Program-made: the position numbers and the translations under genes
Source: Octopus vulgaris
Taxonomy: Eukaryota
Direction of reading: 5' to 3'
DNA length: 64,000 nt
Assembly: GCA_951406725.2 (NCBI GenBank)
Contig: OX597815.1
Location: 205,468,001 to 205,532,000 of the forward strand
The notes under the pieces: generated by a model
Told to the model about the DNA's origin: nothing
What the model saw: only the letters and a program-made list of their open reading frames with translations
The model's database searches: none
In this document: positions 25,045 through 64,000 of the stretch, in pieces
How the letters are laid out: the number at the start of each line of letters is the position of its first letter
Position numbering within the stretch: position 1 is the first letter of the stretch

Positions 25045-25441
25045 TGTTAGGCTTAGTCACAGGATGAGACAATTAGGTGCAGCTGTTTGGCTGCCAATGG
25101 TTTGGCATGGCTGGCTGGACAGTCAACCTGTTTTGGCACATCAGGCAAGCACACATACACACACATGCATGTGTGTGCTGAAATATGCTCATACAATGAG
25201 TGTTACACATTCATATATATGCGTATGTGTGGGCGTGCGTGTGTGGAATGCGTCCCCGCTTTTGGTACTATTTTATAAGTATTACTACGCTGTGTCTAAA
25301 GTTATATAGGTGTCGCTGCGCTGAATGTGGCCAGTTCGTGTAACATGAAAAGTAAATAAACACGTAAAACAATAACAGTGGCTTTCATATTGGTTGTCTA
25401 TCCCATTAGAATGAAATAACACATAACATGGTGGCAGCGGT
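25045..25441 (+). mobile_element. Gypsy-type LTR (about 25045-25428) followed by a tRNA-Leu primer-binding site
   Basis: TGTTAG...CATAACA ends; AATAAA near 25355; TGGTGGCAGCGGT follows immediately and is complementary to the tRNA-Leu 3' end. The 3' part is homologous to 28511-28661. Confidence 0.7.
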
Positions 25442-25666
25442 AAATAATTAATCGGAAACTGTGCCTTTACAACAAAACAGAAAGAACATCCTGCCACCGG
25501 TTCGATACCGTTAAAGAAAAAAAAATATACATGAACTTTCAAAAAACTGCTATGATTAATTTAATTTTGCTCAATTTGGTTTTCATTTTCTTATTAAATT
25601 TTTTTTAGGCAATTGAAACTAATGGTATATTTTGATAAAAAAAAATGTAAATATTTTCTCTTTTTA

Positions 25667-26050
25667 TCTCTCTCTATATAAACGGCAGTTTGTCTGTGTG
25701 TGTTTCTGTGTGTCTGTTAGGTTGTACCCTCACCCTAACCACGGCTTTCAACCGATTCTGATGAAACTTGACACACACATAGCCCAATGTCATAATTCAA
25801 AACTAACGCAGCGAAAATTTTGAAAAGTTCCCCCAGTTCTGAAAAAAATCGATAAATTCGACATGGGGTCGAGAATCAGAAACACAAACCACAGACTGTC
25901 TTGGGGACGCAACTCCACCTTTTTAACTCTCAAAAATAAATTTACCATAATTTTTTTCCATTTTTTTGCTATTTTTTGGCTATAACTCTCTAAGAATGCT
26001 TTATAGTTATTTCCCTTACAAACCCGAGCAACGCCGGGCGATACTGCTAG
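25667..26050 (+). mobile_element. Non-autonomous Helitron
   Basis: A|TC... start, subterminal hairpin CCCGAGCAACGCCGGG and CTAG|T end; near-identical copy at 46941-47333. Confidence 0.8.
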
Positions 26051-28439: not shown

Positions 28440-28510
28440 CTATCTGAAGTTCTGTCATAACATATCAAATGGAATGTAATGTATCCTCTTTCTGTCTTTT
28501 TAACTCTTAG

Positions 28511-28989
28511 TGTTATGTGTAGTTTCCGTCTGGTGGGATAGACAACTCTATACGAAGCATAGTTATTCTTTTTCGTGTTATTTACTTTTCCATGTTACAC
28601 GAACTGCCACTATGCTTCGTATAGAGTTGTCTATCCCACCTGACTGAAACTACACATAACATGGTGGCAGCGGTGGGATGCGAACCCACAGCTCCGAAGA
28701 GACTGGTGCCTCAAACCAGTCTCTTGTGTTCTTGTGACATAAAAAGAACACTTGATTGTTTTTCCTTTGTGTGTCCCTGTGATTGTTGTTTTACCCAGTT
28801 GTGGCATCCTGGTACCTCCGTACGCAGTGAGGATTACATCACTTGGTGTGAGGATTCCTTCTTTGATTTTATCCTCTTGTGTCATGTGTTCTGGGAACAC
28901 CTTTTTGTGGAGGTTGACAGGCAAGATATCACTCTGGGCTCCAGTGTCGATCTTCAGCCTTAAGTCAATGTTTATTCTTTTTCTTGCCA
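28511..28989. mobile_element. Rearranged Gypsy-derived insertion: fold-back LTR end + tRNA-Leu copy + inverted protease fragment
   Basis: TG..CA termini; CTTAG direct repeats at 28506-10 and 28990-94; 53-bp inverted repeat; PBS; minus-strand KIDTGAQSDILP...LTAYGG retropepsin motif. Confidence 0.85.
28662..28719 (-). pseudogene. Partial tRNA-Leu copy (positions 27-76 including CCA)
   Basis: Minus strand reads CTGGT-TTGAGGC-ACCAG-TCTCTTCGGAGCT-GTGGGTTCGCATCCCAC-CGCTGCC-A-CCA: anticodon arm, long variable arm, T arm, acceptor 3' strand and CCA. The D arm is absent. Confidence 0.85.
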
Positions 28990-29453
28990 CTTAGTACTTC
29001 TAAAATCATGTTTGAATGTTTCAAGTTTAAAAAATTACTTAACATTAAGATCAAAGTGCTTGCCTTATTTAATTTTGAACCTATTTATTGAAATCATCAT
29101 CATCATCATCATCATCATTAAAATTTTCTTTCTTAATCTGGGCCATTTATTACACGATACAATAACTCAAGAAGTAGGTCACTTGTTTCTTTGCTTTGAC
29201 CTTTTTTTTTTTTAATTCACTGCAAAAGGAATTCACAGGAATTTCACTAATATGGAATCAATATTTCATGTGTGCTGAATCAACAGTTGAAGGAACCAAA
29301 AACTGAAAGTCAAAAGCTAGGACTACTAATAGTAGTCCTAGATGATGTGGGCCTCTCACTGGGTTCTTCTCAATACCAGCCAAAAGTTAAATACGTTTGT
29401 CCTCAATGTATGAAATAAAATGAAAACTAATAACTGCTTTATTCTCTTTTCAG

Positions 29454-29537
29454 GATCAACAATGTATTTGCTTCCAGCGAACCCTACAAGTCACTCCAGA
29501 CATGATTCATCGGCTGGGGTTAGAGAAAGACCTTGAG
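29454..29537 (+). CDS. WDTC1: WDTC1-like coding exon (first securely identified; phase 0/0)
   Basis: ttttcag|GAT...GAG|gt. Encodes DQQCICFQRTLQVTPDMIHRLGLEKDLE, matching the recalled WDTC1 N-terminal segment (FERRYHVTDPFIRRLGLEAELQ). Confidence 0.88.
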
Positions 29538-59751: not shown

Positions 59752-62700
59752 AAGGCGGCAAGCTGGCAGAATCGTTAGCACGCCGGGCGAAATGCTTAGC
59801 GGTATTTCGTCTGCCTCTACGTTCTGAGTTCAAATTCCGCTGAGGTCGACTTTGCCTTTCATCCTTTCGGGGTCAATAAATTAAGTACCAGTTACGCACT
59901 GGGGTCGATATAATCGACTTAATCCGTTTCTCTGTCCTTGTTTGTCCTCTCTGTGTTTAGTCCCTTGTGGGTAGTAAAGAAATAGGTATTTCGTCTGCCG
60001 CTACGTTCTGAGTTCAAATTCCGCCGAGGTCGACTTTGCCTTTCATCCTTTTTCGGGGTCAATAAATTAAGTACCACTTACGCACTGGGGTCGATATAAT
60101 GGACTTAATCCGTCTGTCTGTCCTTGTTTGTCCACTTTGTGTTTAGACCCTTGTGGGTAGTAAAGAAATAGGTATTTCGTCTGCCGCTACATTCTGAGTT
60201 CAAATTCCGCCGAGGTTGATTTTGCCTTTCATCCTTTTTCGGGGTCGATAAATTAAGTACCAGTTACGCACTGGGGTCGATGTGATCGACTTAATCCGTT
60301 TGTTTGTCCCCTCTGTGTTTAGCCCCTTGTGGGCAGTAAAGAAATAGGTATTTCGTCTGCCGTTACGTTGTGAGTTTAAATTCCGCCGAGGTCGATTTTA
60401 CCTTTCATCCTTTCGGGGTCAATAAATTAAGTACCAGTTATGCACTGGGGTCGATATAAGCGACTTGATCCATTTGTCTGTCCTTGTTTGTCCTCTCTGT
60501 GTTTAGCCCCTTGTGGGTAGTAAAGAAATAGGTGTATCGTCTGCCGTTACGTTCTGAGTTCAAATTCCGCCGAGGTCGACTTTGCCTTTCATCCTTTCGG
60601 GGTCAATAAATTAAGTACCAGTTACGCACTGGGGTCAATGTAATCGACTTAATCCGTTTGTCTGTCCTTGTTTGTCCTCTCTGTGTTTAGCCCCTTGTGG
60701 GTAGTAAAGAAATAGGTATATCGTCTGCCGTTACGTTCTGAGTTCAAATTCCGCTGAGGTCGACTTTGCCTTTCATCCTTTCGGGGTAGATAAATTAAGT
60801 ATCAGTTACGCACTGGGGTCGATATAAGCGACTTAATCCATTTGTCTGTCCTTGTTTGTCCTCTCTGTGTTTAGCCCCTTGTGGGCAGTAAAGAAATAGG
60901 TATATCATCTGCCGTTAAGTTCAAATTCCGCCGAGGTCGACTTTGCCTTTCATCCTTTCGGGGTAGAGATAAATTAAGTACCAGTTACGCACTGAGGTCG
61001 ATGTAATCGACTTAATCCGTTTGTCTGTCCTTGTTTGTCCTCTCTGTGTTTAGCCCCTTGTGGGTAGTAAAGAAATAGGTATATCGTCTGCCGTTACGTT
61101 CTGAGTTCAAATTCCGCCGAGGTCGACTTTGCCTTTCATCCTTTCGGGGTAGATAAATTAAGTACCAGTTACGCACTGAGGTCGATGTAATCGACTTAAT
61201 CCGTTTGTCTGTCCTTGTTTGTCCTCTCTGTGTTTAGCCCCTTGTGGGTAGTAAAGAAATAGGTATATCGTCTGCCGTTACGTTCTGAGTTCAAATTCCG
61301 CCGAGGTCGACTTTGCCTTTCATCCTTTCGGGGTAGATAAATTAAGTACCAGTTACGCACTGAGGTCGATGTAATCGACTTAATCCGTTTGTCTGTCCTT
61401 GTTTGTCCTCTCTGTGTTTAGCCCCTTGTGGGTAGTAAAGAAATAGGTATATCGTCTGCCGTTACGTTCTGAGTTCAAATTCCGCCGAGGTCGACTTTGC
61501 CTTTCATCCTTTCGGGGTAGATAAATTAAGTACCAGTTACGCACTGAGGTCGATGTAATCGACTTAATCCGTTTGTCTGTCCTTGTTTGTCCTCTCTGTG
61601 TTTAGCCCCTTGTGGGTAGTAAAGAAATAGGTATATCGTCTGCCGTTACGTTCTGAGTTCAAATTCCGCCGAGGTCGACTTTGCCTTTCATCCTTTCGGG
61701 GTAGATAAATTAAGTACCAGTTACGCACTGAGGTCGATATAATGGACTTAATCCGTTTGTCTGTCCTTGTTTGTCCTCTCTGTGTTTAGCCCCTTGTGGG
61801 TAGTAAAGAAATAGGTATATCATCTGCCGTTACGTTCTGAGTTCAAATTCCGCCGAGGTCGACTTTGCCTTTCATCCTTTCGGGTAGATAAATTAAGTAC
61901 CAGTTACGCACTGAGGTCGATGTAATCGACTTAATCCGTTTGTCTGTCCTTGTTTGTCCTCTCTGTGTTTAGCCCCTTGTGGGTAGTAAAGAAATAGGTA
62001 TATCGTCTGCCGTTACGTTCTGAGTTCAAATTCCGCCGAGGTCGACTTTGCCTTTCATCCTTTCGGGTAGATAAATTAAGTACCAGTTACGCACTGAGGT
62101 CGATGTAATCGACTTAATCCGTTTGTCTGTCCTTGTTTGTCCTCTCTGTGTTTAGCCCCTTGTGGGTAGTAAAGAAATAGGTATATCGTCTGCCGTTACG
62201 TTCTGAGTTCAAATTCCGCCGAGGTCGACTTTGCCTTTCATCCTTTCGGGGTAGATAAATTAAGTACCAGTTACGCACTGAGGTCGATATAATGGACTTA
62301 ATCCGTTTGTCTGTCCTTGTTTGTCCTCTCTGTGTTTAGCCCCTTGTGGGTAGTAAAGAAATAGGTATATCATCTGCCGTTACGTTCTGAGTTCAAATTC
62401 CGCCGAGGTCGACTTTGCCTTTCATCCTTTCGGGTAGATAAATTAAGTACCAGTTACGCACTGAGGTCGATGTAATCGACTTAATCCGTTTGTCTGTCCT
62501 TGTTTGTCCTCTCTGTGTTTAGCCCCTTGTGGGTAGTAAAGAAATAGGTATATCGTCTGCCGTTACGTTCTGAGTTCAAATTCCGCCGAGGTCGACTTTG
62601 CCTTTCATCCTTTCGGGTAGATAAATTAAGTACCAGTTACGCACTGAGGTCGATGTAATCGACTTAATCCGTTTGTCTGTCCTTGTTTGTCCTCTCTGTG

Positions 62701-64000
62701 TTTAGCCCCTTGTGGGTAGTAAAGAAATAGGTATATCGTCTGCCGTTACGTTCTGAGTTCAAATTCCGCCGAGGTCGACTTTGCCTTTCATCCTTTCGGG
62801 GTAGATAAATTAAGTACCAGTTACGCACTGAGGTCGATGTAATCGACTTAATCCGTTTGTCTGTCCTTGTTTGTCCTCTCTGTGTTTAGCCCCTTGTGGG
62901 TAGTAAAGAAATAGGTATATCGTCTGCCGTTACGTTCTGAGTTCAAATTCCGCCGAGGTCGACTTTGCCTTTCATCCTTTCGGGGTAGATAAATTAAGTA
63001 CCAGTTACGCACTGAGGTCGATATAATGGACTTAATCCGTTTGTCTGTCCTTGTTTGTCCTCTCTGTGTTTAGCCCCTTGTGGGTAGTAAAGAAATAGGT
63101 ATATCATCTGCCGTTACGTTCTGAGTTCAAATTCCGCCGAGGTCGACTTTGCCTTTCATCCTTTCGGGGTAGATAAATTAAGTACCAGTTACGCACTGAG
63201 GTCGATGTAATCGACTTAATCCGTTTGTCTGTCCTTGTTTGTCCTCTCTGTGTTTAGCCCCTTGTGGGTAGTAAAGAAATAGGTATATCGTCTGCCGTTA
63301 CGTTCTGAGTTCAAATTCCGCCGAGGTCGACTTTGCCTTTCATCCTTTCGGGGTAGATAAATTAAGTACCAGTTACGCACTGAGGTCGATGTAATCGACT
63401 TAATCCGTTTGTCTGTCCTTGTTTGTCCTCTCTGTGTTTAGCCCCTTGTGGGTAGTAAAGAAATAGGTATATCGTCTGCCGTTACGTTCTGAGTTCAAAT
63501 TCCGCCGAGGTCGACTTTGCCTTTCATCCTTTCGGGGTAGATAAATTAAGTACCAGTTACGCACTGAGGTCGATATAATGGACTTAATCCGTTTGTCTGT
63601 CCTTGTTTGTCCTCTCTGTGTTTAGCCCCTTGTGGGTAGTAAAGAAATAGGTATATCATCTGCCGTTACGTTCTGAGTTCAAATTCCGCCGAGGTCGACT
63701 TTGCCTTTCATCCTTTCGGGGTAGATAAATTAAGTACCAGTTACGCACTGAGGTCGATGTAATCGACTTAATCCGTTTGTCTGTCCTTGTTTGTCCTCTC
63801 TGTGTTTAGCCCCTTGTGGGTAGTAAAGAAATAGGTATATCGTCTGCCGTTACGTTCTGAGTTCAAATTCCGCCGAGGTCGACTTTGCCTTTCATCCTTT
63901 CGGGGTAGATAAATTAAGTACCAGTTACGCACTGAGGTCGATGTAATCGACTTAATCCGTTTGTCTGTCCTTGTTTGTCCTCTCTGTGTTTAGCCCCTTG
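59752..64000 (+). repeat. SINE-derived satellite, about 184-bp unit, about 23 copies, running off the window end
   Basis: One family-M SINE head followed by head-to-tail units ggtat(t/a)tcgtctgcc...aaagaaata; unit starts at 61078, 61262 and 61446 give a 184-bp period. Confidence 0.97.

Follow-up and report, generated by a model that had tools for sequence, protein, structure and literature searches.

The stretch analysed here, a 64-kb window of the Octopus vulgaris genome (contig OX597815.1), carries part of a WDTC1-like gene that matches a protein labelled Octopus vulgaris at 100% identity. The first coding exon of this gene lies 4.3 kb before the window and the second at 29454-29537, so that a 479-bp cassette situated between them is intronic on the gene's strand, within an intron of about 34 kb. 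The second exon begins 460 nt past the cassette's right target-site duplication, in agreement with the WDTC1 exon that a preliminary description of this DNA had placed about 460 bp downstream. A simple pattern search of the gene strand found no strong splice-site motifs in the cassette, and no intact tRNA gene or Rfam RNA was detected in the region, where three weak matches all fell outside the cassette. The features are as follows.

25201-25428, forward strand: ordinary long terminal repeat (LTR) of an older subfamily of the cassette's family, with its primer-binding site (PBS); a separate insertion
28506-28510, forward strand: left copy of the target-site duplication (TSD) CTTAG, single in the empty allele
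28511-28607, reverse strand: arm A, R-U5 of a Gypsy LTR reversed, starting at the LTR 3' end and stopping 2 nt short of the predicted +1 (97 nt)
28608, forward strand: single extra C at the turn
28609-28661, forward strand: arm B, apparent copy-back of arm A over its first 53 nt
28662-28719, reverse strand: tRNA-Leu positions 27-76 with CCA (58 nt), the first 18 nt being the normal PBS
28720-28725, forward strand: putative self-primed extension of the anticodon-stem hairpin (6 nt), which overlaps a short stretch of imperfect homology to the protease region
28723-28989, reverse strand: protease region of the family in minus-strand order (267 nt), ending at an internal CA
28990-28994, forward strand: right copy of the TSD CTTAG, single in the empty allele
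29454-29537, forward strand: second coding exon of the WDTC1-like host gene

The cassette is a real insertion, and its LTR, primer-tRNA and protease pieces all belong to a single Ty3/Gypsy family. It spans 28511-28989, starts with TG (at 28511) and finishes with an internal CA (28988-28989) that the TSD adjoins directly; its length, its TG..CA ends and the 5-bp duplication CTTAG coincide with those of the preliminary description, as does a 53-nt inverted repeat (28511-28563 against 28609-28661, two mismatches). Under the local base composition, the chance that a given end is matched exactly over 5 bp is about 0.001. As RNA, 28511-28730 is predicted to fold at -125.9 kcal/mol (z -15.7), a value equalled by 0 of 200 shuffles. 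The neighbouring LTR, originally delimited as 25045-25428, is confined to 25201-25428, and 25045-25200 is not part of it. From 25201 to 25667, this older-subfamily copy carries its LTR, a 13-nt PBS and a leader joined straight to the 3' untranslated region by an internal deletion.

The insertion is polymorphic, being carried by some sequenced samples and missing from others. Contig 13 of run X2 joins 28505 directly to 28990 and represents the exact empty site: CTTAG stands there once, and none of the target is missing. This is the very allele that the preliminary description had suggested looking for. A near-exact skip of 482 bases, against 484 expected and with 7 bases of slack, was found in organism D. 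Counting a junction as bridged requires 31 bases inside the cassette; by this measure, the filled left junction is bridged in runs X5, X3 and X4 (47 bases inside, 0 differences) and the filled right junction in X3 (38 bases inside), and X1 (19 bases, plus an unresolved skip) and X8 (28 bases) fall short. The outer junctions in other runs carry the cassette's private base. None of the contigs listed spans either of the two internal junctions, for which the assembly is therefore the source. Across 28990-29500, the empty haplotype in X2 shows 3 flank differences, compared with 7 (X8) and 11 (X3) in filled haplotypes, a pattern attributable either to an old polymorphism with recombination or to precise loss of the cassette at a later time.

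Searches of the genome with the whole cassette (best 40 of 409 candidates) and with its hairpin half (best 40 of 332 candidates) returned only separate LTR and protease matches elsewhere, and junction-centred searches gave one spanning match each, which is the cassette itself (16 of 16 candidates; best 40 of 62). Because it is single-copy in these searches, the cassette is very probably not a mini-element, but one accident and not a new element. It can probably neither transcribe nor copy itself, and is probably neutral and functionless.

Natural copies of the parent family have TG..CA LTRs of 229-251 bp, a tRNA-Leu PBS immediately 3' of the LTR, which comes in two lengths (18 and 13 nt), and a purine tract immediately before the 3' LTR. 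Their Pfam domains stand in Ty3/Gypsy order (RVT_1, RT_RNaseH, Integrase_H2C2 and rve, the last below cut-off), preceded by a CCHC knuckle and then a DTG motif, both upstream of the reverse transcriptase (RT). With its LTR, PBS and polypurine tract (PPT) and its PR-RT-RH-IN order, the parent is, as judged from these sequence features, a Ty3/Gypsy LTR retrotransposon, an assignment made to superfamily level. Its TSD is 5 bp in six of the nine copies with both ends (four exact, two with one mismatch); two of the remaining three lie within TA repeats and one has no TSD. The LTR pairs of family copies differ at 1 to 10 sites, and since the parts of the cassette are about 2% from their best matches, its age is similar to that of the family's copies.

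Arm A is 95/97 identical to two solo LTRs (L096 and L098), arm B runs on into primer tRNA sequence, and each arm has one private change relative to the closest LTRs (L091/L097-L100). For prediction of the transcription start, 32 of 42 distinct LTR copies were anchored in an alignment and 10 were dropped, with ungapped counts over copies that are related to one another. A TATAWA motif lies 31 nt (18 copies) or 30 nt (7 copies) before an initiator-like A in 25 of these 32 LTRs, a distance in keeping with general TATA-to-initiator spacing, and is lacking in seven. The most variable upstream columns among these ungapped, related copies are -3 (0.56) and -2 (0.47), and arm A terminates at -2. Arm A is thus likely to be a complete minus-strand strong-stop DNA ending at the predicted transcription start. 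The extra C at 28608 was possibly cap-templated, as is known for terminal C residues, or else untemplated. At the variable columns 2-3 nt ahead of the predicted start, two of the 32 LTR copies have an extra G. At the turn, natural copies match over 3-4 nt; no thermodynamic bias toward fold-back pairing was found (pair probability about 0.01), and pairing so unfavoured fits a rare event.

The tRNA segment is in register from the PBS, is changed at positions 34 (A>G), 47, 48 and 58 (A>C) relative to the AAG gene, and stops just before G26, the next template base. ARAGORN made 68 redundant tRNA-Leu calls (30 overlapping loci), 53 of them AAG and 15 TAG, all with A58 and G26 and none GAG, and no genomic Leu-GAG gene that might have served as the source was found among the best 40 of 88 candidates. 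The chance that two of the four changes fall on 34 and 58 is 0.004, or 0.012 when 37 is allowed too, for positions chosen post hoc. Human tRNA-Leu carries I34, m1G37, m1A58 and m2,2G26, RT stops at 37 and 26, and inosine is read as G (PMC5066629); zebrafish tRNA data agree in general with the human modification pattern (PMC11417395), and m1A is described as causing RT arrest and context-dependent misreading (PMC4787781). With its CCA, G34, C58 and end before G26, the segment appears to have been copied from a mature, modified tRNA-Leu whose octopus modifications we infer from this pattern. G37 is not misread in the cassette and the changes at 47 and 48 are unexplained; given the background change of about 2% in the cassette, any one of the four may be a later mutation.

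Next to the tRNA segment, the 11-bp snap-back of the preliminary description divides into 6 nt that are new (28720-28725) and 5 bp that are simply the tRNA's own anticodon stem. The protease part that follows is 93-98% identical to 40 genomic copies among the matches listed, and its closest family copies are different from those of arm A. Its earlier label as aspartic protease holds in so far as a DTG motif is located between the CCHC knuckle and RT; for the 90-aa fragment itself, Pfam gave no relevant hit and PDB none at all. All 29 natural copies examined have other letters past the CA. Read in the element's sense, the right end is a TG lying two bases past a purine run of 8-9 nt, and a run as long as this stands before 11-13 of 252-286 internal TG sites. 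Ranked by likeness to the PPT, this site leads in L091 and shares the lead in L093; in the two copies most similar to the protease part, the number of sites that do at least as well, this one counted, is 17 (L092) and 21 (L101). The likeness is modest, and is suggestive of a right end made beside a PPT-like purine run. Just past the CA, the parent and the right flank outside the TSD agree at about 8 of 9 positions.

We consider it likely that the cassette is one aborted reverse-transcription product, inserted by both ends, probably by the element's own integrase. RT primed on tRNA-Leu(IAG) would have copied R-U5 to the 5' end of the RNA, yielding arm A and one C. Without the jump to the 3' R, the DNA end would have primed on its own U5, or on that of a sibling molecule, and 53 nt would have been copied back as arm B. 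RT may then have continued into the attached primer tRNA, passing 58, reading inosine 34 as G and halting before dimethyl-G26, whereupon the end would have folded onto the anticodon stem, gaining 6 nt, before a switch to the protease region of genomic RNA. A purine run there could have acted as a stand-in PPT to give the second strand and the TG..CA end, with both ends finally joined 5 bp apart. This reading develops the earlier suggestion of an aberrant cDNA formed by template switches and integrated through the inverted U5 end, which is authentic, together with a cryptic CA. That suggestion is supported, and X2 provides the clean empty site; the cassette's TG..CA ends, 5-bp duplication and lossless empty site form the combination by which we recognise an integrase insertion of this family.

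Other relics of primer read-through exist in the genome. A pattern search for the PBS and T-arm gave three exact matches, or nine with one mismatch allowed, the nine being the cassette, two matches at one locus on C8, one on C20, four intact tRNA genes and one LTR-less fragment. At L105:5225-5483 (G000:C8, ~92.40 Mb), a 31-nt tRNA-Leu 3' end and a complete family LTR lie within a dispersed repeat, which we take to be Tc1/mariner-like; about 16 nt of target are missing and there is no TSD, and this relic looks like repair capture of over-long plus strong-stop DNA. At L154:1474-2346 (G000:C20, ~61.33 Mb), an LTR is followed by 46 nt of tRNA-Leu (to position 39), which is joined via a 3-nt homology to gag at about nt 840; this copy is truncated, with no 3' LTR in the stretch examined. 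Position 58 is read as A in both, and the tRNA ends in the three relics are at positions 27, 39 and ~46. Three independent events (the cassette, C8 and C20) indicate that primer read-through recurs in the family and that RT passes position 58 in vivo. Among the three relics, the cassette alone combines a fold-back with a demonstrated TSD. A partial duplicate of the C8 relic (146 bp, without the LTR) is present 851 bp upstream of it. The match at L151:1500-1545, a tRNA-Leu 3' fragment with T at 58 and no adjacent LTR, was rejected as a read-through relic and is a pseudogene or a retrocopy.

The same aberrant cDNA might instead have entered through host repair at a break, or through integrase acting at U5 only together with repair, in which case the TSD and CA would be partly due to chance. 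One-ended integration is documented (PMC5041404), and the C8 relic, which lacks a duplication and has lost about 16 nt of target, is a repair-like capture of cDNA from this very family; the resemblance of parent and flank beyond the CA and the weak PPT rank in two of four copies point the same way. Set against these are the exact duplication of the family's 5-bp length (chance about 0.001), the CA end and the lossless empty allele, on account of which we favour integrase joining of both ends and judge repair to be unlikely. A normal element, or nested insertions, later rearranged at the DNA level by inversion, deletion and acquisition of a tRNA gene fragment could account for arm A and the protease part matching different subfamily copies best, and a deleted element of the family does lie 3 kb away. 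Such a history is nonetheless very unlikely: the tRNA part has CCA, the PBS register and a G34 unlike any gene scored, the internal CA is abutted directly by the TSD, and one private change per arm fits arms that were identical at birth.

The mini-element raised conditionally in the preliminary description, a mobile non-autonomous element with hairpin LTRs, would share TG..CA ends and a 5-bp TSD with terminal-repeat elements of the TRIM type, some of which bear tRNA sequence (Helenus, PMC10886601). It has the lowest probability of the readings weighed here, as each internal junction was found once (16 of 16 candidates; best 40 of 62) and the cassette is devoid of direct-repeat LTRs, U3/TATA, an A box and an intact Pol III promoter, the A58 of the B box being changed. 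Hardly more credible is a fold-back artefact of assembly or sequencing inside a real insertion, to which hairpins and internal junctions unbridged among the contigs listed might lend themselves: the outer junctions in other runs carry the cassette's private base, two sites distinguish the arms from each other, and no genomic template among those scored holds the tRNA part. We return to the preferred reading, a self-primed strong-stop product joined at both ends, in comparing the cassette with known systems.

Self-primed minus-strand strong-stop DNA of HIV-1 is reportedly treated in Guo et al. 1997, and a strong-stop model for the origin of SINEs is said to be due to Okada and Ohshima 1993. The cassette was rejected as a tRNA-derived SINE, since tRNA positions 1-26, with the A box, are absent and position 58 is changed. 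The self-primed product of HIV-1 is called a dead end and was undetected in endogenous reactions (PMC6088434); in vitro, HIV strong-stop DNA can anneal within its own U5 and be elongated from there as far as the primer's 5' end (PMC4668388). As in HIV-1, the cassette's strong-stop DNA would have primed on itself without transfer; unlike the in vitro product, the Gypsy cassette appears to have passed two more switches and sits in the germline with a TSD of family length. Read-through of primer tRNA past m1A58 is said to block integration (PMC8599865), and Ty3/Ty1 offer a dead-end plus strong-stop DNA (PMC5371799). The cassette resembles these cases in that RT copies primer tRNA past the PBS, but in them a plus strand begun at the PPT does the copying, and its over-long versions are said not to integrate, whereas here the copying strand would be a folded-back minus strand, with 58 nt copied. 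Primer remnants are also known at 2-LTR circle junctions (PMC5618025).

TRIMs (Helenus/Ajax/Cassandra) are, like the cassette, short elements with TG..CA ends, a 4-5 bp TSD and tRNA-like sequence (PMC10886601); they have two direct LTRs, a PBS, a PPT, a Pol III promoter and many copies, of which the cassette has only the PBS. Its assignment to TRIM/Helenus was rejected, its arms being inverted and partial and dispersed copies absent (16 of 16; best 40 of 62 junction candidates). Aberrant one-ended integration of retroviruses similarly combines one authentic and one abnormal end, but host-joined ends usually show long duplications or deletions and not the normal short duplication, unlike the exactly 5 bp found here (PMC5041404). 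Chimeras of tRNA and LINE-1 likewise unite a tRNA copy and retroelement DNA in a single insertion; they have 9-19 bp TSDs and contain mostly 5' tRNA halves, whereas the cassette holds the 3' part and is no such chimera (PMC13174262). Within a literature search that covered older yeast and retrovirus work and subscription papers poorly, we found no germline, TSD-flanked, integrase-like insertion of self-primed strong-stop DNA.

If our reading of the cassette is right, it would provide inherited, in vivo evidence that a retroviral 'dead-end' intermediate can reach completion and enter the genome in the usual integrase geometry, and that TG/CA alone suffices as a second attachment site. It would also show that genomic relics can report RT stops on the primer and its modified bases. 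More tentatively, and with somewhat less than even confidence, we suggest that self-primed strong-stop DNA can be rescued by Gypsy RT through tRNA copying and an internal jump, that an end formed at a PPT look-alike is acceptable to integrase, and that this is a recurring route. By such a route, LTR elements would furnish introns with tRNA-U5 fusions and with long hairpins that are new. The relics would constitute a datable record of in vivo RT stops and of tRNA modifications (I34, m1A58 and m2,2G26) in species never measured for them.

Two observations concern the wider surroundings. A tandem array of a dispersed repeat with a period of about 184 bp occupies 59752-64000 of the window, within the WDTC1-like gene region. 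Elsewhere in the genome, tRNA-Leu genes form a dense cluster at G000:C14 40.77-40.86 Mb, and LTRs of the family occur in a run, spaced 9-14 kb apart, at C2 14.63-14.74 Mb.
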